Origin: a virus
Strand: one strand, 5' to 3'
Virus record (IMG/VR): IMGVR_UViG_3300048694_001134
Location: 11,656 to 75,655 of that record
Length of the DNA stretch: 64,000 bases
The notes under the pieces are model-generated. The model was given only the letters and a program-made list of their open reading frames with translations. It ran no database searches and was not told the DNA's origin. Shown here one piece after another: positions 3,180-26,919 of this stretch. Numbering within the stretch: position 1 is the stretch's first letter; the number at the start of each line of letters is the position of its first letter. The position numbers and the translations under genes were made by a program.

Positions 3180-6100
3180 ATGCCATTAGAAAAATCTTAT
3201 AACATAAGTCCGTACTTTGACGATTTCAACCAGGCAAAAGACTTTTATAAAGTACTTTTTAAGCCTGGTGTTGCTGTTCAGACACGCGAACTTAACCAGC
3301 TTCAAACGCTGCTTCAAAGCCAGATCGAGCGGTTTGGGGACCACGTTTTTAAGTCTGGCACGATTGTCAGCGGTGTCAACTTTTCTTATATTCCTGTTTA
3401 TAACTATGTGAAGATTCTTGACGTACAGGGTGATGGCCAACCGTCTGTGCCTCAAGCATATGTCGACTATTTTATCAAGAGCGGTCTTAACCTAACAGCG
3501 CGTATTGTTAACTATGAAGATGGTCTTGAGTCGCGCACGCCCGACTTGAAGACGCTGTATCTACAATACATAAACAGCTCTGATCCCGACACTTCAAACG
3601 GTAATATCTCCTACACGCAGTTTGCACCTGGCGAAACGCTAACAATCTTTAGCAAAAATAACGAAATCTTTAAGTACAACGTTCAGAGTGGTGGTCTTGG
3701 GTTTGCAAATGCTGACTCCCTTGTCATCATGAGCGCTATTGGTATTTCTGGCAACTCAGGCGCTTTTAATGCTGGTGATACGATTACACAAGCCGGCGGT
3801 GCACGTGCGCAGATTCTCTACGTTAATACAACAATTGTTTCAAACACAGTCGTCTTGGGCGTTAAGCCGCTGCTTGATGATTTGACAAATACCGCTGTTA
3901 CATCTACAGCGTGGACATTACAGAAAGGCGTCAACGTTGTCGATGCAAACACCTCTGCAACAGCAAACGTCGTGGCAATATACGGATCTGGTGCGCAGGG
4001 TTATTTAACAACGGATGCGTTGGGTATTGTGCAATCGATTGCGGTTGCGGACGGTGGTAGTGATTATACAATCCTTCCTCACGTGACCATCAAAACAGCA
4101 AACGCAGTTGCATCCTACTCAAACCCCTCTTTAAATGTAGTACCACAAAACTATAAAACAACAATTACCGTTGGTAACAACTCAATCAATTCAGTTGGCA
4201 CGGGTTATGCTTTTGGTGTTTCAGAGGGTGTTATCTACCAAAAGGGACACTTCCTCCGCGTTGATCCACAAATCATAGTTGTGGATAAGTTTACAACATC
4301 ACCAAACAACGTATCTGTTGGTTTCAATACTGTTGAAACAGTAATAACGGCAAGCAGTGATGATACGTTATATGACAACGCCTCAAACACGACAAACTTT
4401 GCAGCACCAGGTGCTGATCGTTTGCAGTTGGTTCCTAAACTTATTAAGAAAACAATCGATGAGGCTTCAGCAAACGCAGAGTTCTTCGTTCTTGCTGAAT
4501 GGAAAGAAGGATTCCCTTATAAAGAAAATCGTTCGACGGTGTATTCAGGGCTAGCAGAAGAATTTGCTAGACGTACGCGTGAATCGGCTGGTGATTATGT
4601 CGGTGATATGTTCAGCGTTACAACGCGCGATAAGAATGTAGCAAACAATAACTATATCAACGTTTTAATTGATCCGGGGTTTGCTTACATTAGTGGATAC
4701 CGTGTATCAACATCATACAACAACTATCTCGATATCAAGCGCTCGCAGACGACCTCGAATTCAAGCAACCACAGTGTTACGGTCAACTATGGTAACTTCC
4801 TTTATGTGAAGGAACTAGCAGGCTTCTTTAAGTTCATAGCCGGCGACACGGTTGAGCTTTACAATACGGCAAAGGGATACGTCACTGCCGGTACAATGAC
4901 AACAAGCGGAAGCATTACTCCTCAAGGTACAAAGATTGGTACAGCTCGTATACGAAGCATTATGTACGACAGTGGTGTAATGGGTACGGCTTCTTGTGTG
5001 TATCGTTTGTATCTGTTTGATATCAACATCAGTGCTGGTTACACGTTCCGTAATGTGCGTTCTGTGTTCTATAACGGTACACCGGAAGATGGTATTTGTG
5101 ACGCCGTTCTTGTGCAAGATCCTACGACAAGTACAAGCATTGCGGTACTACAAGACACAGCAAAAGATCAAATGCTGTTCCCTGTGGGTATCACGGGCGT
5201 TACTTCTATTGACAACGTCACCTACACATATAGAACAGCATCTAATACGTCCCTGACATCGTCAGGTAATATGAGTATTGGTCCTCTTGGTGGTACTGCT
5301 GAACATCCATATACACACGGCGCAACGCTCTCTTCCGTAGAAGAGCGTGATCTGTTCCTTATTCCTCAGTCAAACAACCAAGCGGCAGCAAACCAAACAG
5401 GAACATTTACTGTCACGGCAGGTTCAGCGAACGTAACAGGTACAACCGCTGGATGGACAGCTAATTTTGAACCTGGCGATTTTATTCGTCTAGGTAACAC
5501 ATCAACAGCAAACGACACGGCATCTGCACGTGTTGTTGGCCAGGTCAATGCTATTATTAACAGCACGGCTGTTTCGCTTGTCACAGCACCATCCAACTCC
5601 GTCACGGGCAATGCTGTACTTTTCTTCCCCGCACTCTATCCAATCAATCTTGGTCGTACGGGAAGAACAGCAACAAATTCCTCCGATGGAAAAACGCTTA
5701 CCATTAACGTCAACGCGAGCCTGGCCAGTACAGTAAATGCTATTGCTATTCACAACGTACGACAAGCAAACGCAACGCCTGTGTCAAAAACAGTTAAGCG
5801 TAATTTGTATGTAAAGATTGATACAGCAACAAACGTTAACGGTGTTGAGGGCCCATGGTCGCTTGGTATACCTGGCGTGTTCCGTTTAAAAAATGTTTAC
5901 AAAGCATCGAACTCTTCTGTAACTACATCAAGCACGGATGTGACAAAATACTTCTCCGTTGATGTTGGTGAAGAAGAAAATGCATCTCGCAACGCTCAAT
6001 TAGTTCTTAATATTGGCGCACCGCTGACCATTACATCTGGCGACTTTCTGCTTGCCGAGGTTGATGCGTTTACAACGAACGGTAATGAGGGATTCTTTAC

Positions 6101-7970: not shown

Positions 7971-7971
7971 A

Positions 7972-8463
7972 ATGGTAATCAAATTTAGTTCGAACCATTT
8001 TTATTTACCAGTATCACCACTGATACGGCTATTCACATGGTCTCGCTACTCTCATTGTGAATTCGTGTTTTCCAATGGAGTATCGGTATTTCCAGCAATG
8101 GAAGTGGGGGTCGTCGTATCAACAAGAAAAAAATACCCAATAGAAACTTTTGTTGAGGTTGACATTACACCGGCGGAAGAACGTATACTTTATCACTGGG
8201 CAAAGATGCAACTTGGTGTACCGTATGATTATACGGCGTTAGCACCATTTAACGTTCTGATCCCACGGAAGAAAAAAAGTTGGAAAGATTCAACAGCGTG
8301 GATGTGTTCAGAATTTTGTGCTTTTGGTTTGGAAAAAATTGGTATACATCTTTTCGACGCCACCAAAAAGAAAATAACACCTGGTGAGCTGTTTAAGAAA
8401 ATAATCATGCACCCCAAGGCTCGTGTGATCGAAAACACTTCTTCATCATTAGTATCAGCTTAA
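7972..8463 (+). CDS. Permuted papain-like (YiiX/permuted NlpC-P60) cysteine amidase/acyltransferase
   Basis: His before Cys: YSHCE...QLGVPYD...WMCSEF. ATG one base after the upstream stop. Confidence 0.8.
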   Translation: MVIKFSSNHFYLPVSPLIRLFTWSRYSHCEFVFSNGVSVFPAMEVGVVVSTRKKYPIETFVEVDITPAEERILYHWAKMQLGVPYDYTALAPFNVLIPRKKKSWKDSTAWMCSEFCAFGLEKIGIHLFDATKKKITPGELFKKIIMHPKARVIENTSSSLVSA

Positions 8464-10943: not shown

Positions 10944-11164
10944 CAGATAAGTTTTTAAAAACACAAGATAGCAGGTTTGTACGAGATCGTAGGTCTACGG
11001 CCATTCTAAATATAGACAAACAAGGGTACGCACACTACCTCAAAGAACGAGAAAAGCATTTGCAACTTTACAAGGCAGTTGATCAGGTTCAGAGCCTGCA
11101 GCAGGAGATGAGTGATATAAAACAGATGCTACAACAATTATTGAACGGGAAGACAAATGGCTAA
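10940..11164 (+). CDS. Small conserved hypothetical protein (coiled-coil C-terminus)
   Basis: ATGA overlap; FVRDRRSTAILN motif like small genes following VrlC in T4-like phages. Confidence 0.65.
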   Translation: MTDKFLKTQDSRFVRDRRSTAILNIDKQGYAHYLKEREKHLQLYKAVDQVQSLQQEMSDIKQMLQQLLNGKTNG

Positions 11165-13031
11165 AGCAATAGCAAACGTTGTTATCGCATCAGATTCCTT
11201 TGCGACGTGGATTGGTATAACCAATCAGATGGCTGATACGTTTACTAATCAAGCATTGACAGCAAACAGCGCCGCAGCGGGCGCTACCGTCACTGGCAAC
11301 TCACAGTTGGTTGGTATTTTTGCAGCTAATACAATTGGTATAGGAACAGCTCTCCGTGGTGGTAACGTTGCAACGTCAGCGAACCTTACCATTACATCTA
11401 ACGCAAGCTTCACTGGCGCTAATCTACACAGCTCCGCAAACGTGTTTTTGAACGCGGCTAATGTTGATGTCAACACAACAATAACCACGCTGCGCGGTGG
11501 TAGTGTTACTGTTACGTCTAATGCATATACAAACGCAGCTAACGTTTTTGTTAATGCGGCAGCGATGACTATTCAAGGCGGACAAGCGACTGTCTCCTCA
11601 AACGTTGATATTAATAACGCAAACACGACTATCCGTGGCGGTCAAGCGTCAATTACGTCAAACACCTATATTCAGGCTGCTAACGTTTATGTGAACGCAG
11701 CTTCTACTATTGCCCTAGGTAACACAACCTTAAAAGGCAACACGTCTGTTAACAACATAGTTCTGACAGGTAACGCAACGTCGACAAACGTTGACTTGAA
11801 TGTGTCCCAATTGACTATTAATGCTGTGTCTATTGCCACCGGTAACACAACGTTGAAAGGCAACACGTCATCAAGTTCAGTCGTATTGACAGGCAACGCA
11901 ACGTCAACAAATCTTGATGTCGCTGTCTCTCAGTTAACCGTGGGTGCAGTTTCTGTATTCACAGGTAATACAACAATCAAAGCAAATAGTACCGTAACAG
12001 TTGCAACAATTGTTGGCAATTCAACGGCAACAAACGTTGCTGTTACCGCAACAGGTTTCAACATCAACGCAGTCACAATTGCAACGGGTAACACGACAAT
12101 TAAAGCAAACAGTTCTCTCTCAAGCGTAGTGTTAACCGCTAATGCAACGGTGAGTAACTTGAATATTAGTGTTGATACACTATCCGTGACGGGTATTGTC
12201 TCTCTAGCAAATACACTCGGCGTTGCTGGTGCCGGCACTGTTAACGGAGCCTTCACTGTTAACAATACAGCAGCTGTTGGCAATACATCAATTACCGGTT
12301 TTGCGAATGTTAGCACAACACTTAACGTCGTTGGTAACGCAACGGTCAATGGTGCGCTGACAGTCAATAATACAGCATCAGTTGGTAATACGACAATTAC
12401 AGGATTTGCAAACGTCAGCTCGACATTGAACGTTACCGCAAACGCAACAGTTAACGGTGCGTTTTTAGTCAACAACGTAGCTGCTGCTGGTAATACTTCT
12501 ATTACGGGGTTCATCAACGTTTCTTCAACAGCAAATATTGGTGGTGTGCTATCAGCGCGCGCTAACGTTGTTGCTAATGGCCAGTTGATTGTATCTAATG
12601 CAGTGTCGGTTGGTAACACAACAATTACAGGTTTCCTCAATGTTTCAAGTACAACAGCGTTAGGCGGTGATGTAACAATTCAGACGGAAATTGTACAAAC
12701 CGTTGTTACTAATACAAACATTGGTAACGCCAATGCTGCCGGTTCATTTACACCTGTTGAGATCTTTAGCTTCCCTATTGGTACGTATCATGGTGCAAAG
12801 ATTCTTTCACGTACAACAACAAGAACTGGTGCCAATACACAAGTTCAAGAGCTTGTAATTGCGCAGAATGAGACAGACGTTACTCTTACATCCTATGCCG
12901 TTGTTGCTGCTCCTGAAGGTGCTAACGTTGGTGTGTATTCAGCAACAATAAATAGCTCAGCTGTTTCAGTTAAATTCCAACAAACAAGCGCTAACACTAG
13001 TGCCAAGTTGTTTGTGCAGTACATAAAATAA
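11157..13031 (+). CDS. Tail-fibre-like protein with N/T/A/V-rich beta repeats
   Basis: SDSFATW N-terminus; repeats GNTTLKGN and VNNTAAVGNTSITGFANVS; C-terminal globular domain. Confidence 0.7.
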   Translation: MAKAIANVVIASDSFATWIGITNQMADTFTNQALTANSAAAGATVTGNSQLVGIFAANTIGIGTALRGGNVATSANLTITSNASFTGANLHSSANVFLNAANVDVNTTITTLRGGSVTVTSNAYTNAANVFVNAAAMTIQGGQATVSSNVDINNANTTIRGGQASITSNTYIQAANVYVNAASTIALGNTTLKGNTSVNNIVLTGNATSTNVDLNVSQLTINAVSIATGNTTLKGNTSSSSVVLTGNATSTNLDVAVSQLTVGAVSVFTGNTTIKANSTVTVATIVGNSTATNVAVTATGFNINAVTIATGNTTIKANSSLSSVVLTANATVSNLNISVDTLSVTGIVSLANTLGVAGAGTVNGAFTVNNTAAVGNTSITGFANVSTTLNVVGNATVNGALTVNNTASVGNTTITGFANVSSTLNVTANATVNGAFLVNNVAAAGNTSITGFINVSSTANIGGVLSARANVVANGQLIVSNAVSVGNTTITGFLNVSSTTALGGDVTIQTEIVQTVVTNTNIGNANAAGSFTPVEIFSFPIGTYHGAKILSRTTTRTGANTQVQELVIAQNETDVTLTSYAVVAAPEGANVGVYSATINSSAVSVKFQQTSANTSAKLFVQYIK

Positions 13032-13042
13032 TAAGGTAAGTA

Positions 13043-14251
13043 ATGGCTGCTAGTAATACAAAATTCAAAGTCGATAACGGATTAGAGGTTGTTGGTACAG
13101 CCAACGTTAGCGGCAACTTCAGAGTTGAAGGTGACTTTGCGGTTGGGGGTAACCTCGCTTTTAGTGGTACGAGCTCGGCCGACTATAAACCTACGACTGA
13201 CGATACGTATGCCCTAGGTAACACATCAACCCGCTGGATTGTATATTCTTCAAAAGGGTTTTTTGGTAATGTAACGTCGACTGGTATTGCACAGCTTACA
13301 AACGCAACGGCAGATGTAATAATTCCAACGTCGAATGCTGCAGCACAGTTTGGTTCTGCTACACGTCTATGGCAAGTGACAGCAAACACTGTTACAGCTG
13401 TAACAACAGCAGTATCTAATACGGAAAGTATTGTTGGAACATCGGCAACATTCAATGCCTTGTCTGGTGTTTCTTCAGCAATAGACTTTATTACAACTAT
13501 TGCAGCACATGGATTTTCTAATGGCGAACTCGTTCAATACCTTGTAGCTGCTGGCAATACAGCTTTGAGTGGACTGACAAATGCGTCCTTCTATTATGTC
13601 ATTTCTGCTAACACGACTGGCTTCCAGCTATCAACAACGTTCGGTGGGTCAAACGTAAACATAACAGCCGGCTCGACAAGCGAGACAGGCCACACGCTTG
13701 TCCCAGTGAGAATCGTACTTTCAAGCAACGGTTCCCTATTTGCACCAGCCGGCGTTGCAAACGTGGGTACACTCCGTGTACTTAATAATGCTGTCGTTAA
13801 TGGTACACTGACAATCGCTAATGCATCAAGTTTTTCTGGCAACGTCGCTGTGGCCGTAGATGCGTTGTTCGTTGATACGGTTAATAAAGTTGTTGGTATC
13901 AAGAACAATTCACCATCCTCAACGGATGCTGTCACGATAACAGGTAACGTCTTTTTCACTGCAGCAAACACTGGACTCAGACTGCGCAGTACAGCAAACA
14001 CCTCACAAAACGCATCAATTGCGTTTATGACGAGTAATACATCCAACAGTCGTCTAACGTTTACGACGTACGATAATTCAAACTCTTCTGTCAAGGATGG
14101 TGGCTTTGCATTCAACTTACAACAGAATGCTAGTTCGACTACGACGGGATTGACGATTGACATGACAAACGTTCAATATAAGGGTGGTAATGTCGTGCAC
14201 GCAGGAAACTTTGGCATTTATAATGTCAGCGGCACACGTGTAGGACCATGA
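13043..14251 (+). CDS. Tail-fibre-like structural protein
   Basis: FKVDNGLEV start, PTTDDTYALGNTSTRW fibre motif, HGFSNGELVQY module. Confidence 0.65.
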   Translation: MAASNTKFKVDNGLEVVGTANVSGNFRVEGDFAVGGNLAFSGTSSADYKPTTDDTYALGNTSTRWIVYSSKGFFGNVTSTGIAQLTNATADVIIPTSNAAAQFGSATRLWQVTANTVTAVTTAVSNTESIVGTSATFNALSGVSSAIDFITTIAAHGFSNGELVQYLVAAGNTALSGLTNASFYYVISANTTGFQLSTTFGGSNVNITAGSTSETGHTLVPVRIVLSSNGSLFAPAGVANVGTLRVLNNAVVNGTLTIANASSFSGNVAVAVDALFVDTVNKVVGIKNNSPSSTDAVTITGNVFFTAANTGLRLRSTANTSQNASIAFMTSNTSNSRLTFTTYDNSNSSVKDGGFAFNLQQNASSTTTGLTIDMTNVQYKGGNVVHAGNFGIYNVSGTRVGP

Positions 14252-14252
14252 A

Positions 14253-16142
14253 ATGGGAAGACCTCTTAGAGCGAAATATAGCGGTGCAGTCGCTATTGGG
14301 GTTCAGGAGATGTCGGATGCAGAGATTGCAGACATCATTCTTCCTAAGCTAGTCAACTATGCAGTAGCTAATCCGGACTCTGTTTATGGGTCAAAATTAA
14401 GAATCAATGGTGCTGGCGCCTATGATGTTAATCGTGGCACGTTCACTGACTATCGCACGTCAAGTTATGGCGGCGCTCATCCAATTACGGTTGATCTTAT
14501 CAACACGTACAACTTTACTCAGAATGAACGTGCACTAACTCCTTCCCTCTCAGCACGTCCTGTTCATTATATCCAAAACGGTAATGAACAGCAAGTTGTT
14601 GAGATGTCTAATTCAGACATTTACGATTACCTTCTTCCTACCATTATCGATACAATGGCGTATCGTTACTGGCTCCTTGACAACATCTATACGCCATCAG
14701 GATTGTCATTTCCAGGTACATGGGTTAGTGTTGGAACTTTTGCAGATACGTATTGGTCCTCAACGTCATTGATAACAGTCAACTACACGCTATGGCAACG
14801 AACAGATACGTTGTCAGTGGGCACGACATACAGACCTCTCAAACAAACAATTGTGAGTGGTGAATCTCGGCTCGTAGAAATGACGGATCTTGAGATAGAA
14901 TCAATGTATGTGTGCATTGGCGAATCAATTCGTACAAAGGGGATAGGTCAATACTCATTTAGTACATCTGCGCCTGGTACTGGTACATGGACATCGGTAG
15001 GATCGGCTATTGACCGTTTGAATATAAATTACGATGTAAACTACACAGGATCGTATGCAGGCACTTACGTTGGTAGTTACACGGGGATCTACGCTGGTAC
15101 GTATCAAAGCACGTTTACCGGCCAATATGGTAACACCTTTACTGCGCTGTACACTGGTATCTACAACCTACTGACACCGTTCACTGGCGGATATGCAGGA
15201 ACGTATCAGCAAGCATTTACAGGAGCATTCTCTGGATCGTACACCGGCGCGTTCAGTGGTTTGTACAATTCTTCATTCAGCGCTGCGTATCAAGGTACAT
15301 ACACGGGTGGATATGCAAACAGCTACACGGGCGCATACAGTGGTAACTACATTATATACTTTACGGGAATATATGCAGGCACATACACTGGTCTGTTTAA
15401 CCGTACAAGTTACACGGGCGCTTACACAAGCGTGTATAGACGCACATTTGGTGGTCGAGAAGAAAACTGGTATGCGTCAAGCTACGCTGGAGCGTATAAC
15501 AGCTTTGCCCTGACATATATTGGTTATTTCACTGGTTCATTCAGACGTACATATGGTAGTAATGAGCAGGGTTATTATTCACAAGCGTTTGTTGGAGCAT
15601 ACGGTCCAGGCGGCACTGTCAGCTATATCGGTTATTATGTTGGCTCGTTTAGACGCACATATGGTAGCAGTGAGCAAGGTTATTATTCGCAAGCGTTTGT
15701 TGGAACATACCGCGGTGTATCGAAATCTTGGACAGGTAATTATGCAGGTGGGTACACGACAGGATACTACACGGGCGTCTATAGTCAGGCTTGGACAGCT
15801 GTTTGGTCCGGAGCATATACACGAGTAGTTAATCAAACATTCACCTCTACGTACAGCGGCGCGTATAGTAAAGCATTCGTAGGATCTTACGCTCAATCAT
15901 TTACCGGTGCTTTCACCGGGATATATACAGGAGCATATTCTTCATTAGTACCATACACGGGAGCTTATAACAGAGTCTACAGTGGCGGGTTCACAGGCGC
16001 TTATACAAGTGCATACTCGGGAGCATACACGGGCGTATATACGCGGGCGTGGACCGGAACGTATACAGGAGTTTACACAGGCCTCACTGCACAAAACACG
16101 CTGCAGACAATGACAAAGAGCTTGTACGTTCGTACAGCTTAA
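14253..16142 (+). CDS. Aromatic-x-Gly-x repeat fibre protein, short paralog (629 aa)
   Basis: Three N-terminal RP...EM(S/T)D.(D/E)I domains, then about 30+29 tetrapeptide units around three central ~36-aa repeats. Confidence 0.8.
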   Translation: MGRPLRAKYSGAVAIGVQEMSDAEIADIILPKLVNYAVANPDSVYGSKLRINGAGAYDVNRGTFTDYRTSSYGGAHPITVDLINTYNFTQNERALTPSLSARPVHYIQNGNEQQVVEMSNSDIYDYLLPTIIDTMAYRYWLLDNIYTPSGLSFPGTWVSVGTFADTYWSSTSLITVNYTLWQRTDTLSVGTTYRPLKQTIVSGESRLVEMTDLEIESMYVCIGESIRTKGIGQYSFSTSAPGTGTWTSVGSAIDRLNINYDVNYTGSYAGTYVGSYTGIYAGTYQSTFTGQYGNTFTALYTGIYNLLTPFTGGYAGTYQQAFTGAFSGSYTGAFSGLYNSSFSAAYQGTYTGGYANSYTGAYSGNYIIYFTGIYAGTYTGLFNRTSYTGAYTSVYRRTFGGREENWYASSYAGAYNSFALTYIGYFTGSFRRTYGSNEQGYYSQAFVGAYGPGGTVSYIGYYVGSFRRTYGSSEQGYYSQAFVGTYRGVSKSWTGNYAGGYTTGYYTGVYSQAWTAVWSGAYTRVVNQTFTSTYSGAYSKAFVGSYAQSFTGAFTGIYTGAYSSLVPYTGAYNRVYSGGFTGAYTSAYSGAYTGVYTRAWTGTYTGVYTGLTAQNTLQTMTKSLYVRTA

Positions 16143-16157
16143 CTATTTTTTGTTTCT

Positions 16158-19100
16158 ATGGCCATAACATCACTTAAGTACAATACAGCGTTAAAGGGAT
16201 TACAGGCAATGTCCAATACGGACGTTGCTAGTTACCTTTCGCCTGTTATTGGAGCATACTTTGCTTCAAACACAAGTGTTGGTTCTCTTGCTGTTGGTTC
16301 AATGGCTAATGGTACATCGATCGGTACATGGGTCGATACTTACCGGACAGACTCGCTCGGTACGCACCCCGTCAATGCTGGTGCTATTACCACAAACAGC
16401 ACAACGCTCTATCAAGATCTTTCCAACTCCTCTTTAAATGAAACGACAGTACGACCTCTTGGGTGGAGTACGAGTAATAACTATTTCAAAGAGTTTACTG
16501 ATACGGATATAAAAGACAATCTTTGTAATGCAGTTTTACAGGGCATGCTTCTTTCCGGCGCAGGCGCATACGTGCTTCAGCCAACGGCTCCTGCTACTGG
16601 TACATGGGCGTCTCGAGGAACGTTAACAAATACGTTAACTACAGGAACAACAAACACAACAACGCTTTGGCAGCGCACAGATAGTACCGCTTCAACGGTT
16701 ACAAGACCTATCAAGTTTGCGGCTGGCGTGCGCGAGATGACTGATGATGATATCAGAACATTAACGCATAAAGTTCGTAACTACATTGTCACAAACGGTA
16801 TTGGACAATATCAGTTATCAGCAACAACGCCTGTAACACCAGGAACATGGGTTCAAGCAGGTAGCGGTTTTGATGATACGCGTTATCAAACTCAAGACCA
16901 AGCATATGCTGGCACGTACCAACAAGCATTCACCGGCGCCTACACAGCAGCGTACACGGGAGCCTATGGTGGGAACTTTACCGGCGTTTACAATCAAACT
17001 TTCTCCGGAACTTACCAACAGGCATTTAGCGCAGCATACACTGGCCTGTACACAGGTGTTTATAGCCAAGCGTTCACAGGAAGCTACACTAACACGTTCA
17101 CGGGCGCTTTTACTGGTGCTTATGTAGGTACGTTCTCCGGAGCATACACAGGTGCTTATTCACGTGTGTTCACTGGCTCATATACAGGCGCATACACTGG
17201 TATATACAGCCAAACGTTTACAGGGTCATACACAGGCAGTTACAATCAAACATTTACTGGCGCTTACACTGGTATCTACAACCAGACGTTTACTGGTACC
17301 TATGCTGGTAATTATCAGCAGACATTTACTGGCGCATACACAGGTAATTATAACCAAACGTTCACGGGCACGTACAGTGGCGGGTACATTGGATATTTTA
17401 CTGGCTCTTACGCTGGCACATATTCAAGCGTGTTCAGTGGTTCATATACCGGTGCTTACACGGGCGTATACAATCAGACGTTCACCGGAGCGTATGCTGG
17501 CAGTTACATAGGATACTTTACTGGTTCTTACGCGGGTACATATTCGCGCGTGTTTAGTGGTTCATATACTGGTACCTATACCGGTGTCTACAATCAAACG
17601 TTCACAGGTGCGTACGCTGGTGGATACGTTGGCTACTTTACTGGCTCTTACGCCGGCACATACTCACGTGTGTTTAGCGGTTCATATACTGGATTGTATT
17701 CTGGCGGATATACTGGTTACTTCACGGGCAACTACACGGGGTATTATACTGGTTACTTTACAGGTAATTACACGGGTGCTTATTCACGTGTGTTTACTGG
17801 AGCGTACGCTGGTGCATATACGGGATATTATACTGGGTACTTCACCGGGTACTATGCAGGATCATATACCCGCGTGTGGACGGGATCGTATGCTGGTACG
17901 TACGGTCAAACATGGACGGGTGTGTATGCTGGCGCTTATGCGCGATCGTGGACGGGCACATATACGGGCTACTTCACGGGCAATTACACTGGTTACTACG
18001 CAGGAGCGTACACGGGGTACTACACTGGTTATTTTACTGGATACTATACAGGGTATTATGCACGTGTAAGCTACACAGGATATTATACTCGAGTATTCAG
18101 TCGCACGTATGGCGGCAACGTTGCGGGTGGTGGCTGGTTTGCAGGTAGTTTTGTTGGTACTTATAACGTCAACGCAGTCTCTTATGTTGGGTATTATACT
18201 CGAGTATTCAGTCGCACGTATGGCGGCAACGTTGCGGGTGGTGGCTGGTTTGCAGGTAGTTTTGTTGGTGCCTATAATGCAACCGGGGCAGTCTACATGG
18301 GCTACTATGTTGGCTCGTTCAGTCGCACGTATGGCGGCAACACTGCGGGCTGGTATTCATCTAGCTACCTTGGTGGTTATCAAAACGTGGCTAAAGCGTT
18401 TGCAGGTAGTTACGCAAGTTCATTTGCCGGTGCGTATACAGGCGCGTACGCAGGAACGTATGCGGGCGCCTATGCACAAAGCTTTGCAGGAACGTATACT
18501 TCATACTTTACAGGTAACTATACTGGTTCGTATTCTCAATACTGGACGGGAACTTATGCTGGAAATTACTCAGCGACTTGGACAGGAACATACGCCGGCG
18601 TATATGCAAATACATTTGTAGGGTATTACACTGGCGTGTACGCAGGTAATTACACGGGAACGTTCTCAGGTATATACGCTGGTGCTTATGCGCAAGCGTT
18701 CGCTGGTTTGTATGCTGGCACATATGCACAGGTGTTCACAGGAACATATGCTGGCGCATATGTTGGTAACTACACTGGTAGCTTCACTGGCGCGTACGCT
18801 GGTGCGTACGCTCAAACGTTTACAGGTATCTATAGCGGTGGTTATGTGGGTGCATTCACAGGCCAATACAGCGGCGCCTATATTGGTAACTATACAGGTA
18901 GCTTCACCGGCGCATATGCAGGAGCTTATGCACAATCATTCACTGGGTCATACAGCGGCGGTTATGTTGGCTCGTTTACCGGACAGTACAGCGGCGCCTA
19001 TATTGGCAACTATACCGGTAGCTTTACTGGCGCGTATGCCGGCGCGTATGCGCAGACATTCACCGGACTGTATAGTGGTGGCTACGTTGGTACGTTTACT

Positions 19101-19610
19101 GGTCAGTATAGTGGTGGTTATGTCGGCACATTCTCCGGACTCTATAGCGGCGGCTACGTTGGCTCCTTCACTGGTCAGTATAGTGGTGGTTATGTTGGCA
19201 CGTTTAGTGGCGCCTATGTGGGAAATTACTCACAATCCTACACCGGTATATACGCTGGTGCGTATGTTGGTAATTACACAGGAACGTTTACAGGAAGCTT
19301 TGTTGGCAACTACCAAAGTACATTTACCGGTATTTACTCCAACACATTTTCCGCAGCATATGTTGGGTCTTATGTTGGCTCGTTCACCGGACAGTACTCA
19401 GGCTCATATGGTAATGCATGGACAGGAGCGTTTACAGGCTTGTACACGGGTCAGTTCACAGGAATTTACACGGGACTATATACCGGGGTATATTCAACAG
19501 CATATTCAGGCGCTTATGTTGGGTCGTTCACCGGTTCGTATACAGGGTTGACTATCATTTCAAGTCCTGAGACAATATCAACGATAAAACTTTGGGTAAG
19601 GATAGCATGA
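16158..19610 (+). CDS. Aromatic-x-Gly-x repeat fibre protein, long paralog (1150 aa)
   Basis: Same N-terminal domains; 97+96 tetrapeptide units around three central repeats. Confidence 0.8.
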   Translation: MAITSLKYNTALKGLQAMSNTDVASYLSPVIGAYFASNTSVGSLAVGSMANGTSIGTWVDTYRTDSLGTHPVNAGAITTNSTTLYQDLSNSSLNETTVRPLGWSTSNNYFKEFTDTDIKDNLCNAVLQGMLLSGAGAYVLQPTAPATGTWASRGTLTNTLTTGTTNTTTLWQRTDSTASTVTRPIKFAAGVREMTDDDIRTLTHKVRNYIVTNGIGQYQLSATTPVTPGTWVQAGSGFDDTRYQTQDQAYAGTYQQAFTGAYTAAYTGAYGGNFTGVYNQTFSGTYQQAFSAAYTGLYTGVYSQAFTGSYTNTFTGAFTGAYVGTFSGAYTGAYSRVFTGSYTGAYTGIYSQTFTGSYTGSYNQTFTGAYTGIYNQTFTGTYAGNYQQTFTGAYTGNYNQTFTGTYSGGYIGYFTGSYAGTYSSVFSGSYTGAYTGVYNQTFTGAYAGSYIGYFTGSYAGTYSRVFSGSYTGTYTGVYNQTFTGAYAGGYVGYFTGSYAGTYSRVFSGSYTGLYSGGYTGYFTGNYTGYYTGYFTGNYTGAYSRVFTGAYAGAYTGYYTGYFTGYYAGSYTRVWTGSYAGTYGQTWTGVYAGAYARSWTGTYTGYFTGNYTGYYAGAYTGYYTGYFTGYYTGYYARVSYTGYYTRVFSRTYGGNVAGGGWFAGSFVGTYNVNAVSYVGYYTRVFSRTYGGNVAGGGWFAGSFVGAYNATGAVYMGYYVGSFSRTYGGNTAGWYSSSYLGGYQNVAKAFAGSYASSFAGAYTGAYAGTYAGAYAQSFAGTYTSYFTGNYTGSYSQYWTGTYAGNYSATWTGTYAGVYANTFVGYYTGVYAGNYTGTFSGIYAGAYAQAFAGLYAGTYAQVFTGTYAGAYVGNYTGSFTGAYAGAYAQTFTGIYSGGYVGAFTGQYSGAYIGNYTGSFTGAYAGAYAQSFTGSYSGGYVGSFTGQYSGAYIGNYTGSFTGAYAGAYAQTFTGLYSGGYVGTFTGQYSGGYVGTFSGLYSGGYVGSFTGQYSGGYVGTFSGAYVGNYSQSYTGIYAGAYVGNYTGTFTGSFVGNYQSTFTGIYSNTFSAAYVGSYVGSFTGQYSGSYGNAWTGAFTGLYTGQFTGIYTGLYTGVYSTAYSGAYVGSFTGSYTGLTIISSPETISTIKLWVRIA
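16905..19550 (+). repeat. Coding 12-nt-period repeat region, (Y/F/W)-x-G-x
   Basis: Strict 12-nt spacing of aromatic codons: 16905 to 18057 is 96x12 nt; 18399 to 19539 is 95x12 nt. Confidence 0.95.
18081..18269 (+). repeat. Exact 78-nt direct repeat (18081-18158 and 18192-18269)
   Basis: tattatactcgagtattcagtcgcacg...gttttgttggt occurs twice with a 111-nt period. Confidence 0.95.
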
Positions 19611-20059
19611 AGAGAACCATAAAAAACCCGCATTGGGTCAATAATGCAAGAACAGTAATGTCGGCTGAGTTTCACTACGATGATGGAAGAGTGATTACGG
19701 CGGTTATCAATTCTAACGAAACAAACAATCCCGACTATCAAGAGATACGTGCAACGTTCTCTGAAGCAGAGCTGGAACAGAATACACAAAACAATATTCG
19801 TAAAATCCAGGGCGACAGGGATCGTCAAAAGGCGCAGGAAGAAGCTCAAAAGGAACGTGAGCGTCAGGAGCGGTTGTTCCAGGTTAAACTTGCTGCCTTT
19901 GAAGTTGATGCTATTAAGAATACCACAAATAAAGCTTTGAAGTCAGCACTCCGCCGTTCGAAAAGCGATTTTGAAGTATATGCAATGGCAGCAGCAATTA
20001 TCCTTGACTCGGTACAAAATCCTCCCGCTCAAACTGACGAGCCGTCAGAGGAACAATAA
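19607..20059 (+). CDS. Hypothetical protein, possible fibre assembly chaperone
   Basis: ATGA overlap with the repeat gene; IKNPHWVNNART start loosely resembles tail-fibre assembly proteins; coiled-coil middle. Confidence 0.45.
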   Translation: MKRTIKNPHWVNNARTVMSAEFHYDDGRVITAVINSNETNNPDYQEIRATFSEAELEQNTQNNIRKIQGDRDRQKAQEEAQKERERQERLFQVKLAAFEVDAIKNTTNKALKSALRRSKSDFEVYAMAAAIILDSVQNPPAQTDEPSEEQ

Positions 20060-20778
20060 TGACTGATCTTCGTAATGGTTTTTTGATCGTAGCCTCAAAG
20101 GATCCCGGCTACGTGATTGGTGCAAATTTTCTCGCTGCAAGTATAAAGGATTTCTATCCTGAAGCACATATTACCATGTTTGTCACTCCCGATTTACGAA
20201 CCCGGGTTGATGATAGCGTGTTTGATTTAGTCGTTAGTGAGGATGTCCCTTCACACATAAGAACGAAGCTGTACGCTCTATCACAAACGCCTTACACGGA
20301 ACTAACTTGTTACGTTGATGCTGACATGGAATGCATGCATGAAGATGTACGCAACATTTGGAATGAAATGCCAAACGATTGCGATATTTTGATTACAAAA
20401 ATTAGACCATATAATGGAAAAGAAGATAAGTGGCCTGGTGGCACCACAATCCCCAAGGGTCGCATGACTTACCACGGCGGCTTCTTTCTCTACCGTTCAA
20501 ACGAACAAACAAAATACTTCATGGAAAGGTGGTGGCAAGATTACGTCAAGCAGCGCGCCGAGCCATGGCCATACAATGAGGATGAAATACCAAAATCATT
20601 TGCTCAATGGGATCAATTTACTTTTTGGAAGTTGATGAACGAGGACAATCTCCCAATCAACGTTCAGGTATTCAATGACGACGCTAGGTGGAATTTTGTC
20701 AATGGGTACTATCTGACCGAGACGCAACAGCCGATCGTTTTTTATCATCACACACTACCGCATAGAGTTGGCCAATGA
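20059..20778 (+). CDS. Glycosyltransferase, GT-A fold (GT8-like)
   Basis: TKLYALSQTPY..TCYVDAD (DxD), HGGFFLY, WDQFTF, RWNF, late His. Confidence 0.75.
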   Translation: MTDLRNGFLIVASKDPGYVIGANFLAASIKDFYPEAHITMFVTPDLRTRVDDSVFDLVVSEDVPSHIRTKLYALSQTPYTELTCYVDADMECMHEDVRNIWNEMPNDCDILITKIRPYNGKEDKWPGGTTIPKGRMTYHGGFFLYRSNEQTKYFMERWWQDYVKQRAEPWPYNEDEIPKSFAQWDQFTFWKLMNEDNLPINVQVFNDDARWNFVNGYYLTETQQPIVFYHHTLPHRVGQ

Positions 20779-21383
20779 AAACTATTGAAATAAACAACAA
20801 AGACCTAAAAGTAATCCTTGACAAGTTTCTACAACAGCTATTATTGCAAGATCGATCAAACTATCCCTACGGCCGTTCAGATATAACTCCGGAGTATGCA
20901 TGTGGTAATGAATACTTGCATCACATGCAAAATAAACCGGTTGATGGCTTTCCGGAAAAAACGTATGGTGTTGATCTCTCACGTCATATCCCACCCAACT
21001 TGAAAGAAGCATTGAAGACGCTAGATCAAGAGTTGCTTGCTTGGTCGGGATCGAGGAACAACGCTGTCAAGATGTTGTATCCTAAAGGTGGGTACATGGG
21101 ATGGCATCACAACGCCAATGCGGCTGGCTACAACATCCTTCTTTCATGGTCAAAGGATGGAAAGGGATATTTTAGATACCAAGATCCGCTGACGAAAGAA
21201 ATCGTAACAATGCAAGATACGCCGGGATGGACTTGTAAAGTTGGATACTACGGTCCTTGGAATGAACCTGATAGAATTTATTGGCATTGTGCAAACGCAG
21301 AAAACGAAGAAAGATTGACGCTGGGTTATATTATTCCTCATGAGGGAATGTGGGAAGACATGATAGACGATATTCAGAGCTGA
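20775..21383 (+). CDS. 2OG-Fe(II) oxygenase-like double-stranded beta-helix protein
   Basis: YPKGGYMGWHHN...YWHCA...RLTLGY pattern. Confidence 0.65.
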   Translation: MKTIEINNKDLKVILDKFLQQLLLQDRSNYPYGRSDITPEYACGNEYLHHMQNKPVDGFPEKTYGVDLSRHIPPNLKEALKTLDQELLAWSGSRNNAVKMLYPKGGYMGWHHNANAAGYNILLSWSKDGKGYFRYQDPLTKEIVTMQDTPGWTCKVGYYGPWNEPDRIYWHCANAENEERLTLGYIIPHEGMWEDMIDDIQS

Positions 21384-22186
21384 CGTAGGAGCATGTCGCG
21401 GCCAATCTCTTTGCGAATATCTTCCCGCTGCTCTGTAGTGCCGTTGAACGCCTCTTCAAATCTTGAATAATAGCTTTTGTAACCGTTAGATACAAAATCG
21501 TCTATATCTTCCTGTGTTGTTGGCCCATTGAAAAGAACAATTGGTACTGAGTCTTTGTATACCTCATATTCTTCTGGCGATGACATAATTCGTTTTACTT
21601 TCCTATCGATATCATACAGAAAAGAATAAAAGCAATCCTCAGGAAGGCCACCTCTGATTTTATGTTCATAAAAAAGAAAGCCATCCATTCCTCTCCAGTA
21701 TTTTTTTAAGAAGGCTTGCTTGTTTTCTATGAATGATGACCATAAATGATTTGTTGTTCCTGGTATCCAGAACATGCAGCTCGAGTTGATGGTGTGATCA
21801 AGGTATGGTGGTTCTATATCCTTACGTCTTAAAGATTTCCAAACAGCATTAATTGTTTTAAAGGTGCTTGTTTCTTTTGAACGGTTGATAAACCCGTCAA
21901 TGTTTTTCTTAATTACAATGTCAAGATCAAAGAAAAACGTCGGATTATTATTAATCTTTAACGCAAACTCGTCGCTGAGAAGAAACAGTTTGTTAAAAAC
22001 AATTGGATGTAGATCAAAGTCAACGTATGGTATAACTTTGATTTCTGGGTGCAGACCGACAGGATCATCTGTATAACAGAAAAACTTAAATGGCTGCGAC
22101 ACAAAAGCGCTGCACATGCCGTGCAGCTTGTTTGCATAAATACTGCCATACTTCGATCCAATCTTCACACAAACGATGTTTATCAT
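21374..22186 (-). CDS. Glycosyltransferase, GT-A fold
   Basis: CVKIGSKYG..YANKL, FFCYTDD, FFDLDIVI (DxD), INSSCMFW, VLFNG. Confidence 0.75.
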   Translation of the reverse strand: MINIVCVKIGSKYGSIYANKLHGMCSAFVSQPFKFFCYTDDPVGLHPEIKVIPYVDFDLHPIVFNKLFLLSDEFALKINNNPTFFFDLDIVIKKNIDGFINRSKETSTFKTINAVWKSLRRKDIEPPYLDHTINSSCMFWIPGTTNHLWSSFIENKQAFLKKYWRGMDGFLFYEHKIRGGLPEDCFYSFLYDIDRKVKRIMSSPEEYEVYKDSVPIVLFNGPTTQEDIDDFVSNGYKSYYSRFEEAFNGTTEQREDIRKEIGRDMLLRQL

Positions 22187-22214
22187 CACAATTTAACTTT
22201 TTAGAGGTGCAAAT

Positions 22215-22823
22215 ATGTACATTGTAGGAACAGGTCGCTCAGGTTCTACAGCTTTCACAATCCACAAGGCATTAGAAGCTGGCGTTCCTTTCAAGGGTGA
22301 AATAAATTATTTCCCAGCAATTGCTGGGCCTAACCCATCTCGTCCCGTTTGGAAGCGTGATTTCCACGAAACAGGTATTCAACCAACATATACCGTTGAT
22401 GAATATCTCGATGCGTGGGACAACTTATCCGATCCCAATTCTATGTATCTCGTGTCTGCACAGAGTGGTGATGTTTCTGTTTGGGCTGGCGCGTCTGCAT
22501 TCATTACGCGTAAGAACATCCGCAACGCAATGCTTTCTCACGCAAACCTTCTAATAAAGAGCTACTATGGCAACACACCGGTTGTTCGTCCTTACCATTT
22601 CATTAGACAAGCCGTTGAAAGAAACTTTATCACGACATGCTTGATGCTCAAGTTCTGCGCCAAACACAACAAGACCATTACATGGTACGAGGATGTGTTT
22701 GAAAAGACAACCACATACAGCGCTTTCAACGATTGGCCACATAGACAAGAACTTCTTACGTTCCTTGACGAACTCATTGCAGAATTCCGGCCGGAACTAC
22801 TGAACCAGAATATCGTTGTGTAA
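22215..22823 (+). CDS. Sulfotransferase-like P-loop protein (Stf0-like)
   Basis: 5'-PSB-like IVGTGRSGST, 3'-PB-like TRKNIRNAMLS, WYED. Confidence 0.55.
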   Translation: MYIVGTGRSGSTAFTIHKALEAGVPFKGEINYFPAIAGPNPSRPVWKRDFHETGIQPTYTVDEYLDAWDNLSDPNSMYLVSAQSGDVSVWAGASAFITRKNIRNAMLSHANLLIKSYYGNTPVVRPYHFIRQAVERNFITTCLMLKFCAKHNKTITWYEDVFEKTTTYSAFNDWPHRQELLTFLDELIAEFRPELLNQNIVV

Positions 22824-23440
22824 TGTTTAGTTATCTTTGTAATGTTTCTGATGTTCTACGCACACTACCAAAGCATCAGATAGATGATTTTGCTGATTCG
22901 TTTAGTAAGACACAATACAGATCGAAAAAGTGGTTAGTTGAAACACTGGCCCAAACAAAACTCCCCTCATCACCGTCTATATTAATATTAGGCGGATGGT
23001 ATGGGAGTTTTCTTGTTCCTATGTTGCAACAACAGTACCCCGAGTGCTCCATTCTTTTAACTGACAAACAAAGTGAGCCCCTCTCCGTTGCAGAATACCT
23101 ACATGACGCGCGATACAGCGGCACGTCAAAAATAAGAATGGGTGTTGTTGATGTCGAGCAGAATTTGCAACGCGTGCAGAATCAAAGTTTTGATGTTGTT
23201 ATAAACACGTCCTGTGAACACATGACCAACCTCCACAATATCAAAGTTGCAAACGAGGATGCTCTGTATGTGTTTCAAGCGTGCGATGAAAAAGATGATC
23301 CCGGCCATATCAACCCTATACAAACAACGGATGATCTGGTGAAGCAATGTAAACTGACCAACATCATTTTTCGGGGTAGGTTGGATCTTGGTCACAAGAA
23401 CAGACTAATGATCATTGGCAAAAAGCAACAGATTTTGTAA
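22823..23440 (+). CDS. Class I SAM-dependent methyltransferase
   Basis: ILILGGWYG motif I, LLTD, DVVINTSCEHM. Confidence 0.75.
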   Translation: MFSYLCNVSDVLRTLPKHQIDDFADSFSKTQYRSKKWLVETLAQTKLPSSPSILILGGWYGSFLVPMLQQQYPECSILLTDKQSEPLSVAEYLHDARYSGTSKIRMGVVDVEQNLQRVQNQSFDVVINTSCEHMTNLHNIKVANEDALYVFQACDEKDDPGHINPIQTTDDLVKQCKLTNIIFRGRLDLGHKNRLMIIGKKQQIL

Positions 23441-24033: not shown

Positions 24034-26919
24034 ATGGCAAACCAAATTCAAATAAAGAGAAGTAACACCACGGCATTGCCTGCAAGCCTTGCCGTCGGTG
24101 AACTTGCGTACTCTGGAAACGGTGAGGTACTATTCATTGGTAGCGTGAACGGGGTTGCCAACTCAGCAAACGTCGTTGCCATTGGTGGTGTCCGTAACCC
24201 AGGTACATTGACAGCAAACCAAGCACTCGTTGCTAACTCAACGAGCTGGATAGATGCAATTCAAACAACAAAGCTGATTGTTGGACCCGTCGGCACAACA
24301 GTAAACGTTGCTTCGATATCAACTCAATCTAACAGCTCTCAACTTGGTGCAACGGCAGGTGGATCAAATACTGAGCTTGTTTCTTCATGGGCTGTTAAGA
24401 ACTACGTTGACACACGTACGGGCGTTGTAACGGCGGGTCAGGTCGTATACGCAAACTCGACTGGCGGGCTTTCTGGTGATGCAGGGTTTACGTTTGTTGC
24501 TGCAACAGACGCGCTTACAGTTAACGGATCTATTCTTGTCGGTGCAAACGTTGTTACAAACACAACAGCTTTGTACGTTGGTAACTCTACATCCAACTCC
24601 GTTCTTTCTCAGGGCAGCTTGGTTCTTTCGAACGGCACCGGAACAGTAACAGTCAACCTTTCACAGATATCCGTTGGATCAAACGTCGTTGCAAACGCTA
24701 CTGCCGTATATGTTGGCAACTCAACTGTTAATGCAGTTCAAAGTCAGACAGGCGTTGTTGTTACAAGCGCAACAACCACGACCACGGTTAATACGACACA
24801 AGTTTCCGTAGGTGCAAACGTTGTTGCAAATACAACTGGTATACTGGTTGGTAACAGCACCGTCAATGCTACCGTTGTTTCAACACTCATCCAGGCGGCG
24901 AACAGTACCGGAACAGCAAACATTACACCGACAGCATTTGTTGTTGGTATTGCGACCGTCAACTCAACGGCCGTTTCCGTTGGAGCGAACGTTACTCTTA
25001 ACGCGACAACGCTGTTCATGGGTAACAGCACTGTTAACACAACACTGACAGCAGGCAACCTACAACTCAAGGGTACAATGTTGACAGTAAGCAACGTCAC
25101 CATTGACGGTGATGCTGTTCTTGTTGGCAACTCAACTGTCAATGCTTACACAAACAGTTCGTTCATTACTGTACGTAACGCATCAAGCTCGTCAAACGTC
25201 ACACCGACATCCATTGACGTTGGAACAAGTAGAGTTAACACCACGGTCGTTGCTGCTGGCGCGAACGTTATTGCTAATACTACAGCGTTGTATATTGGTA
25301 ACTCGACTGTCAATGCTGTTGCTACGCAGGTTGGGTTCACTGTTACGAACGGTACAGTCACCTCCGTTGTCAACACTTCTCAAGCATCCGTGGGTGCAAA
25401 CGTTGTTGCTAACACGACAGCGGTATATGTTGGTAACTCGACCGTCAACGCAGTTCAAAGTCAAACCGGTGTTGTTGTTGCAAGTGCTACTCAAACAACA
25501 ACAGTCAACAACACAGTAGTTGCTGTTGGTGCAAACGTTGTTGCAAACTCAACACAGTTGCTCGTTGGTAACACGACAGTTAACGCGTCGATCACGTCAA
25601 CACAAATAAGAGTAGCAAACAGTACAGCGTCTGCAAACGTTAACCCTAATGCCGTCTTGGTTGGTACGTCTGTTGTTAACACAATAGCTCTTGCAGCTGG
25701 TGCAAACGTTATTGCTAACACAACGGCGTTGTATGTTGGCAACTCGACTGTCAATGCGGTTACGACTCAGACTGGCACCTCATGGGCGTCAGCTACTCAA
25801 ACAACTGTTGCTAACAACACAGTAGTTGCGGTCGGTGCGAACGTTATTGCAAACGCGACGGCTTTGTTTGTCGGCAATTCAACCGTTAATGCCGTCACAA
25901 CACAAGTTGGCACATCTTATCAAACAGCTACACAGACGGTTGTTGTTAACAACAGCGTAGTCTCCGTCGGTGCAAACGTTATTGCAAACGCAACGGCTGT
26001 GTTTGTTGGTAACAGCACAGTTAATACGGTAATTACTGGCATTGGTCTAACGTCAGGTAACTCCGTCGTTAACACTACAACAATCGCTGTAGGCGCAAAC
26101 GTTGTTGTCAATACATCAGCAGCGTCGATTGGTAATTCGACGGTAAACGTCCAGATTACACAATCGTCTATTACCACTACCAATGCAACAGCAACGTTTG
26201 GTAACACGACGGTTAATGGTTTTGCAAACGTAGCAACAACACTTAACGTCGTTGCTAACGCATCGTTCGGTGCAAACGTCTCTGTTACAAATAACATTAC
26301 CGCTAACCAAATGGCGGTCGGTGACTTGAGCGTCTCTGGTAACTTGAACGTTACTGGTACGCTGACAACAATTAATGCTAACAACATTACCGTTACAGAT
26401 CCGTTGATTCAGTTGGGTACGAATAATAACGTATCAGACTTGTTGGATATTGGTGTCTATGGTAATTATGGTCTCGACGCAAATACAAACAACCATAGAC
26501 ACGCTGGTATCTTCCGTGATGCGAGTGATAGCGGTGTTTGGAAGTTGTTCGATGGTTTGTTGGCTGCGCCAACGACAACCATTGATACAGCAAACAACAC
26601 CTACAATCCTGCTACGCTTCAGGCGTTCCTCAAGACAGGTGGCACAGGTCTAACTGGTTTCATTGCCAACTCAACATCGATTACGTTGACGGCAAACAGT
26701 ACAATGAACGTCAACATAACGGCAAATACGTTGTCGTTGTCAACCCCGCTACCAGGTACATCCGGTGGTCTTGGTTTGAATACGTTCACAGCGGAAGACA
26801 TTCTTGTTGCTAACAGCACAAACGGATTCCGTAAACTGAGCAAGGGTTCGGAAGGAACTGTTCTTCAGATTTCCGGCGGCGTGGTCGCTTACAGTACACT
26901 TGATGGTGGCACATATTAA
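24034..26919 (+). CDS. Long tail-fibre-like protein with VGANVxANxTAxxVGNSTVN repeats
   Basis: N-terminal IQIKRS...LAVGELAY module, many ~45-aa repeats, VTDPLIQL/DIGVYG/GIFRDASD region, ends LDGGTY. Confidence 0.75.
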   Translation: MANQIQIKRSNTTALPASLAVGELAYSGNGEVLFIGSVNGVANSANVVAIGGVRNPGTLTANQALVANSTSWIDAIQTTKLIVGPVGTTVNVASISTQSNSSQLGATAGGSNTELVSSWAVKNYVDTRTGVVTAGQVVYANSTGGLSGDAGFTFVAATDALTVNGSILVGANVVTNTTALYVGNSTSNSVLSQGSLVLSNGTGTVTVNLSQISVGSNVVANATAVYVGNSTVNAVQSQTGVVVTSATTTTTVNTTQVSVGANVVANTTGILVGNSTVNATVVSTLIQAANSTGTANITPTAFVVGIATVNSTAVSVGANVTLNATTLFMGNSTVNTTLTAGNLQLKGTMLTVSNVTIDGDAVLVGNSTVNAYTNSSFITVRNASSSSNVTPTSIDVGTSRVNTTVVAAGANVIANTTALYIGNSTVNAVATQVGFTVTNGTVTSVVNTSQASVGANVVANTTAVYVGNSTVNAVQSQTGVVVASATQTTTVNNTVVAVGANVVANSTQLLVGNTTVNASITSTQIRVANSTASANVNPNAVLVGTSVVNTIALAAGANVIANTTALYVGNSTVNAVTTQTGTSWASATQTTVANNTVVAVGANVIANATALFVGNSTVNAVTTQVGTSYQTATQTVVVNNSVVSVGANVIANATAVFVGNSTVNTVITGIGLTSGNSVVNTTTIAVGANVVVNTSAASIGNSTVNVQITQSSITTTNATATFGNTTVNGFANVATTLNVVANASFGANVSVTNNITANQMAVGDLSVSGNLNVTGTLTTINANNITVTDPLIQLGTNNNVSDLLDIGVYGNYGLDANTNNHRHAGIFRDASDSGVWKLFDGLLAAPTTTIDTANNTYNPATLQAFLKTGGTGLTGFIANSTSITLTANSTMNVNITANTLSLSTPLPGTSGGLGLNTFTAEDILVANSTNGFRKLSKGSEGTVLQISGGVVAYSTLDGGTY

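Follow-up and report, generated by a model that had tools for sequence, protein, structure and literature searches.

Gene Organization and Repeat Layout

The stretch of DNA analyzed here (the window, 64,000 nucleotides) corresponds to positions 11,656 to 75,655 of the IMG/VR virus record IMGVR_UViG_3300048694_001134 and carries a gene for a putative phage fiber whose single polypeptide chain very probably runs out to a distal tip and folds back in register. The source record is 75.6 kb long and is estimated to be 43% complete. The fiber gene occupies 16158–19610 on the plus strand as one open reading frame of 1150 residues (P0001), which encodes a base, an outgoing arm, a tip, a returning arm, and a closing strand. 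The base (residues 1–249; 16158–16904, +) is composed of three tandem repeats, the third of which is broken after approximately residue 249. Arm 1, the outgoing arm (residues 250–637; 16905–18068, +), follows the pattern (Y/F/W)-(T/S/A)-G-x. The tip (residues 638–747; 18069–18398, +) contains S638 followed by repeats of 37, 37, and 35 residues. Arm 2, the returning arm (residues 748–1131; 18399–19550, +), has a pattern of F/W-initiated units that mirrors that of arm 1. The closing strand of the third base repeat (residues 1132–1150; 19551–19610, +) ends with K-L-W-V-R-I-A and the stop codon. A short paralog of the same design (629 residues; 14253–16142, +) has arms of approximately 31 and 30 units and a tip of three repeats.

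An earlier note on this DNA, made from the letters and translations, had described 97 and 96 tetrapeptide units around a three-repeat center. Parsing of the translation gave the same counts, with the four-residue, aromatic-first units unbroken by any indel in either arm. The end of arm 1, previously placed at 18071, was corrected to 18068 because the former value takes in S638.

The first position of the arm units is aromatic in 100% of cases, the second is T, S, or A, the third is Gly in approximately 78%, and the fourth is small and variable. The residues D, E, K, H, P, C, and M are absent from all 772 positions of the arms, where R is the sole charged residue. Judged from composition, the arms fit long regular strands. 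Collagen-like G-X-Y repeats were considered and rejected, because Gly occurs at every fourth residue rather than every third and position 1 is always aromatic.

Each of the three tip repeats holds the motif R-T-Y-G-G-N, which resembles the tight turn of the short family members described below. A period of 111 nucleotides was detected by Tandem Repeats Finder at 18084–18354, within the tip. Three-repeat tips are also found in the closest ortholog (L003) and in the upstream paralog.

Mirror Register of the Two Arms

When the units are indexed from the center, 28 of the 31 F/W-initiated units on each arm coincide at offset 0, and W stands opposite W at indices 13 and 16. Both observations had been made by hand count and were reproduced by parsing. 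At all other mirror offsets, no more than 19 F/W matches were obtained (17–19 at the next best offsets, ±3). The direct, nonmirrored comparison of the two arms gave at most 18 matches, and the comparison of each arm with its own mirror image gave at most 17. The register was expected to exceed that of shuffled units, and none among 100,000 unit shuffles attained a value of 28. A second set of 100,000 shuffles randomized the order of the gaps between F/W units, preserving the 3/3/4 spacing and taking the best of 11 offsets; it also failed to reach 28 (null mean of 14.2, maximum of 23). Tandem super-repeats of 120 nucleotides are located at 17355–17692 in arm 1 and at 18753–19108 in arm 2, at mirrored distances from the tip.

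Units with a residue other than Gly at the third position number 23 on one arm and 17 on the other, and not a single index is shared between them, in agreement with the proposal that bulky third positions sit opposite Gly. The specific partners that had been reported to covary are also present: YAQx-F stands opposite FTG(N/S) in six of six cases, YNQT lies next to FTGQ in four of six, and YS(R/S)V-F stands opposite FTGA in three of five. Taken alone, these co-occurrences are no proof of contacts between residues, because a 10-unit periodicity common to both arms confounds them. All of the covarying pairs fit an arrangement with position 3 opposite position 4 of the neighboring unit and position 1 opposite position 2, and the same residue-level register is implied by the four-residue GGxN turn of the short members; given the periodicity, this register is not claimed.

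Phe or Trp replaces Tyr every 3 to 3.3 units (12–13.3 residues), at equal height on both arms. From the geometry of β-sheets, this spacing would correspond to roughly a complete turn if the two strands form a strongly twisted ribbon, with all of the F/W residues facing one way.

The Protein Family and Matched Arm Lengths

A search with the N-terminal 249 residues identified 338 clusters at 50% identity in metagenomes (E ≤ 0.001; 1.84 billion representatives), and a word-indexed search also returned four proteins. The complete members end in a nearly invariant L-W-x-R. The nearest clusters in the ESM Atlas are viral hypothetical proteins. No PHROG family was matched by the fiber protein at E ≤ 0.001, and no Pfam family was found beyond a compositional match to the 45-residue Gly-zipper profile PF13441 (Gly-zipper_YMGG). 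The latter was rejected: the 59.7 bits are summed over the repeats and no single stretch passes.

The tblastn search of GenBank phages returned one true relative, Phage C48C1 (Kyanoviridae), and two further matches to the repeats only. The C48C1 protein (L002; OQ984149.1, 141011–151054) is 3347 residues long, is annotated as a "hypothetical protein", and contains many separate YxGx runs of up to 70 units interspersed with Y-x-R-x-R-x-S runs, an organization suggestive of multiple hairpins, either nested or in series. The region upstream of the fiber gene gave no megablast match in the phage collection.

Six related IMG/VR loci were retrieved, and four complete orthologs are among them. The arms of these four proteins contain 116/115, 123/123, 128/126, and 164/163 units with no frame-breaking indel, and His was not found in any of these arms. 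The corresponding F/W mirror matches are 34/39, 38/43, 42/44, and 51/53, and the null maxima range from 26 to 38. The pair of one short and one long gene is kept in all five related contigs (L003–L007), and the arms of the upstream paralogs in related contigs contain 34/34, 25/27, and 37/40 units.

Homologs had been predicted to have arms of equal length, and this was borne out from approximately 5 to 164 units, a 30-fold range, in more than 20 proteins. Strict uninterrupted runs gave equal arms of 23/23, 34/34 (three proteins), 19/19, 20/20, 13/13, 10/10, and 9/9 units, and near-equal arms of 15/14, 13/12, 11/10, 25/27, 22/20, and 37/40 units. A cruder parsing of 37 members gave a correlation coefficient of 0.70 between the two arms (Spearman 0.61, p = 5e-5). 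The parsing heuristic caused outliers in the 37-member set, and the strict runs were mainly relied upon.

Differences in length are also matched between the arms of single proteins. Relative to the fiber protein of the window, that of L003 has gained a net 19 units in both arm 1 and arm 2. The differences include a one-unit indel at approximately 22 and 18 units from the tip on the two arms, an insertion of 10–13 units within the zone of 10-unit periodicity on both, and an insertion of 7–10 units approximately 68–70 units from the tip, again on both. The paralogs of the window and of L003 each carry a two-residue bulge per arm, 12 and 11 units from the base, and the bulges of the window paralog end in Pro. 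In the L005 paralog the bulges are located 11 and 11 units from the base, and in P0076 they are 49 and 48 residues from it. A family-wide test of paired frame-breaking bulges was too noisy, and the bulge evidence therefore consists of individual cases.

The shuffles, the equal arms, the mirrored orthologs, and the matched indels agree with the earlier proposal of one chain running out and back, antiparallel and in register. We regard this arrangement as very probable from the sequences.

The Split Base Domain and Structure Prediction

The placement of the whole insert in a loop of the third base repeat, as first suggested, is supported by the family alignment and by structure prediction. Each base repeat is laid out as a helix, a G-T-W/F strand, a hairpin, and an L-W-x-R/K strand, with the motifs conserved in the family alignment (A2). 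A few members in A2 carry almost no insert. In the short members, the G-T-W...D-T-R strand of the third repeat leads into a YxGx run, a Y-Y/F-G-G-x-N turn, a second run of equal length, and the G-x-T-V...L-W-x-R strand.

The base was predicted by AlphaFold2 with family alignments as a single compact domain (predicted local distance difference test, pLDDT, of 88–98). The prediction for P0001 used an alignment of 85 sequences. The strand formed by residues 238–255 pairs with residues 1123–1148 at pLDDT >90, and the closing strand of the third base repeat has pLDDT values of 96–98. In P0028, a member of 389 residues with arms of 15/14 units, the strand of residues 239–259 pairs with residues 359–387. 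The pairing thus brings the two ends of the insert together at the hairpin root. The P0028 model is confident only at the base and this root (pLDDT >90), and the register sum of its low-confidence distal strand pieces is equal to that of the root. Beyond the first few units of the arms the pLDDT falls to ~30–45. A three-copy complex of the 316-residue P0008 was predicted with A2 and gave an ipSAE (interaction prediction score from aligned errors) of 0.00, which says nothing either way about oligomerization.

The only structures that matched the base of the P0001 and P0028 models above Z 5 are MABP-type β-prisms (2qp2, 8b6v, 3tow, and 6sb1). The VIA-align superpositions gave Z scores of 5.3–7.4 and root-mean-square deviations of 3.5–5.4 Å over 113–121 residues, with 8–11% identity. 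The three tandem base repeats fit a pseudo-threefold prism built by one chain. A Foldseek search of the PDB with the P0028 model gave no match at E ≤ 0.001. In phmmer searches, the N-terminal 249 residues had no match among PDB sequences at E ≤ 1, and the arm segment matched PDB chains as low-complexity noise only.

Genomic Setting and Neighboring Genes

A gp8-like baseplate wedge subunit and a 1596-residue DUF4815 protein are encoded upstream of the fiber gene, which is flanked by baseplate wedge genes and by further wedge- or fiber-like proteins. The gp8-like protein is 31–36% identical to its counterparts in Caulobacter phage Cr30, Sinorhizobium phiM12-like phages, and T4-like cyanophages. 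This match and the wedge and fiber neighbors assign the region, by sequence comparison, to the module that encodes the tail fibers and baseplate of an uncultured T4-like myovirus from the sea, with the fiber gene as part of it.

Three other proteins of this region, of 624 (11157–13031), 402 (13043–14251), and 961 residues (24034–26919; all +), show an extreme abundance of N, T, S, V, and A. They contain repeats such as VGNSTVN and GNTT(L/I)KGN, matched no Pfam family and no informative PHROG, and are probably other fibers of a different, one-way repeat type. An odd neighbor is found between the baseplate and fiber genes, where a 167-residue protein (7960–8463, +) matches a PHROG of enoyl-CoA hydratase/carnitine racemase-like proteins (E 3.5e-22). 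In the DUF4815 protein (3180–7970, +), approximately residues 1365–1395 gave a very weak match to a Hint module (E 0.005) that is below the cutoff and is probably noise.

An open reading frame of 155 residues rich in K, E, and R (19592–20059, +) overlaps the 3′ end of the fiber gene by 19 nucleotides. A protein with 59% identity is encoded at the same place after the L007 ortholog. The 155-residue product, for which no Pfam or PHROG family was found, is a candidate for a fiber-specific chaperone. Kinship with the C48C1 protein annotated as a tail assembly chaperone was considered and rejected, as the two are unrelated.

A cluster of small enzyme-like genes follows the fiber genes directly (20059–23440). 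The gene at 20059–20778 has a weak glycosyltransferase match below the Pfam cutoffs, and the gene at 21374–22189 (−) matches a PHROG glycosyltransferase (E 9e-8). As the fiber arms are very rich in Thr, Ser, and Tyr, a decoration of the virion is conceivable.

Proposed Architecture and Alternatives

The sequences demonstrate, as far as they can, that the chain folds back in register, that the insert splits a base repeat, and that arm lengths are matched throughout the family. The ribbon geometry, the single-chain state, the site of attachment, and a role in receptor binding are inferred. The reading that we favor, at about even confidence, is a fold-back virion fiber of a T4-like myovirus with one extended two-stranded β-ribbon per chain and a MABP-like base. 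The chain would begin as the compact base, with the three tandem repeats forming a pseudo-threefold MABP-like β-prism. The hairpin of the third repeat would be hugely extended, and the 97 units of arm 1 would lead away from the base to a tip of three lobes formed by three mini-hairpins. The 96 units of arm 2 would come back antiparallel and in register, and the end of the chain would supply the last strand of the prism. Within each unit, one face of the strand would present the aromatic residue and Gly, and the opposite face the small T/S/A residue and the variable residue.

Each chain would thus form its own ribbon of ~130 nm when extended (~128 nm from base to tip for 388 residues at 0.33 nm), and up to ~215 nm in the ortholog with 164 units. 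One ribbon per chain is favored because the threefold base lies within one chain and, of its three hairpins, only a single one has been lengthened. Such a ribbon would place the tip at a great distance from the particle, for the first contact with the host, and would be anchored by its base to the baseplate or the tail. A role in receptor binding may be proposed for the charged, three-lobed tip from its position and context. A more specific form of this model is a free-standing ribbon of 130–215 nm with no conventional core, a Tyr/Gly checkerboard, an F/W "register code", and a length tuned by compensating indels; we advance it tentatively, at somewhat less than even confidence.

Several observations weigh against the ribbon model. 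The arms of full-length P0001 were predicted by AlphaFold2 at a pLDDT of ~30 and mostly as coil, and thus provide no structural model. The MABP matches exceed those of all other chains for the P0028 model yet stay below Z 8 and are modest. The location of the protein in the virion and its function are deduced only from the gene neighborhood. We know of no solved precedent for an isolated two-stranded ribbon longer than 100 nm. Arms that are uncharged and rich in aromatic residues look liable to self-associate, and trimers are the usual state of phage fibers. The F/W spacing of 12–13.3 residues could also be read as the stripe of a bundle core or as the coil period of a solenoid.

A serious rival, though we consider it rather unlikely, keeps the same fold-back of the chain and makes the shaft an oligomeric bundle, similar to the hairpins of T4 gp37, in which the hairpins of at least three chains surround a common axis and the F/W residues form a buried seam. 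Such a bundle would agree with the typically trimeric state of phage fibers, with the out-and-back insertion of the gp37 needle in a split collar domain, and with the uncharged, aromatic character of the arms; the F/W units return every 12–13.3 residues at equal height, as a core stripe would, and a bundle would avoid an isolated ribbon that seems fragile at this length. The base argues against it, however: there are three repeats per chain, the long hairpin is present on one only, and an internal threefold needs no three chains. The arms also contain no His at all, which leaves no His-x-His motif for binding metal, and the protein shows no relation in sequence to the gp37 families. An arrangement of both arms co-wound as a compact cross-β solenoid, a double-start β-helix with approximately 12–13 residues of each arm per turn and F/W as a stacked ladder, would shorten the rod to ~30 nm instead of 130 nm and is improbable. 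In its favor, F/W units recur with a period of 3 to 3.3 units and at equal indices on the two arms, which resembles an aromatic ladder; Gly at every fourth residue and arms without charges also agree with it. All of the units are YxGx, however, with no separate turn motif; three aromatics per 12-residue coil appear too large for the core of even the smallest β-helix geometry; the spacing alternates 12/12/16 and varies among the orthologs; and the short members resemble simple hairpins with one tight turn.

The least probable alternative, which we consider very unlikely, treats the arms as a disordered, sticky region of low complexity whose symmetry is a by-product of duplication history, with no pairing between the arms. 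The low confidence of AlphaFold2 in the arms and a composition like that of prion-like Y/G/S/T/Q/N-rich regions are consistent with disorder. A mere duplication history is difficult to reconcile with the equality of the arms across over 20 proteins that differ greatly in length, with irregular F/W patterns mirrored in five orthologs, with indels and bulges matched between the arms, and with zero frame-breaking indels in runs of up to 656 residues. In addition, the insert splits a folded domain, and its two ends must therefore meet.

Significance of the Fiber Family

The proteins described here make up a large family without previous characterization, encoded in the module for host recognition of marine T4-like phages. 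They provide an unusually clean rule from sequence to architecture: what is irregular on one arm recurs in mirror image on the other, an indel on one is offset by an indel on the other, and the coevolution is one of length rather than of residues. If the extended ribbon is correct, these proteins would rank with the longest and thinnest fibers of phages and would achieve a far reach with little protein; at 130–215 nm they would be at least as long as the whole T4 long tail fiber, built from approximately a seventh of its residues. A free two-stranded ribbon, if correct, would be a new class of protein fiber and a natural template for designed β-ribbon materials. With a pLDDT of ~30, the arms are also a blind spot of current predictors.

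The design is real and strongly supported, and it is apparently undescribed as a variation on the theme of fold-back fibers. A description of the family or of its architecture was not found in the literature, the coverage of which was incomplete, so that this is weak evidence of novelty.

Comparison with Known Systems

Thin monomeric β-structures without a conventional hydrophobic core can be stable, as in the central sheet of Borrelia OspA and the E-G5 rods of staphylococcal SasG and Aap. These structures are three-stranded and modular, measure tens of nanometers, and are unrelated in sequence; none is a continuous two-stranded hairpin. The T4 gp5 β-helix, the repeats of gp12 and gp34, and the adenovirus triple β-spiral resemble the present protein as repetitive, Gly-containing, β-rich fibers or needles. 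They differ in having three parallel one-way chains with a period of 8 to ~15 residues, whereas here one chain forms antiparallel arms with a period of 4.

The distal, receptor-binding tip of gp37 of phage T4 (PDB 2XGF) has needle domain D11 in collar domain D10. As in the present protein, a fiber segment of a T4-like myovirus is inserted in a split globular domain, and the chain runs to the distal tip and returns antiparallel. The earlier suggestion that such an architecture had no known description is therefore too strong, because the gp37 needle shares the out-and-back topology. The needle is inserted in the split collar domain D10, which is made up of residues 811–881 plus 1010–1026, and is trimeric with seven Fe ions bound by His (PMC6957217). 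It measures ~150 by 25 Å (~15 nm), has ~64 residues per arm, and is an obligate six-stranded trimer. In the present protein the arms are 388 and 384 residues long, with a maximum of 656 in an ortholog; they have a strict tetrapeptide repeat and lack His. The gp37 needle is thus approximately one-eighth of the length of the present shaft, with the same topological idea and a different chemistry, and its split domain is a trimeric collar rather than a single-chain prism of three repeats. No membership in the gp37/gp12 collar or long-tail-fiber families was found by PHROG, Pfam, or phmmer against PDB sequences. The two halves of the T4 long tail fiber measure 70 and 74 nm (PMC3004832).

The MABP prisms of MPEG1/perforin-2, Plu-MACPF (2qp2), Mpf2Ba1 (8b6v), and MVB12B (3tow) are the best and almost the sole matches to the base, over ~115 residues. 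The MABP β-prism of MPEG1 carries an exceptionally long β-hairpin, which touches the membrane (PMC6753088). The hairpins of these prisms are tens of residues long, and the domains belong to pore-formers or are accessory to the endosomal sorting complex required for transport (ESCRT), unlike a virion fiber. Z scores below 8 and identities of 8–11% are insufficient for a claim of common ancestry of the base with the MABP prisms. Relative to gp37 and MPEG1, the novelty lies in the scale, in the chemistry of the tetrapeptide units, and in a base whose three repeats belong to a single chain.

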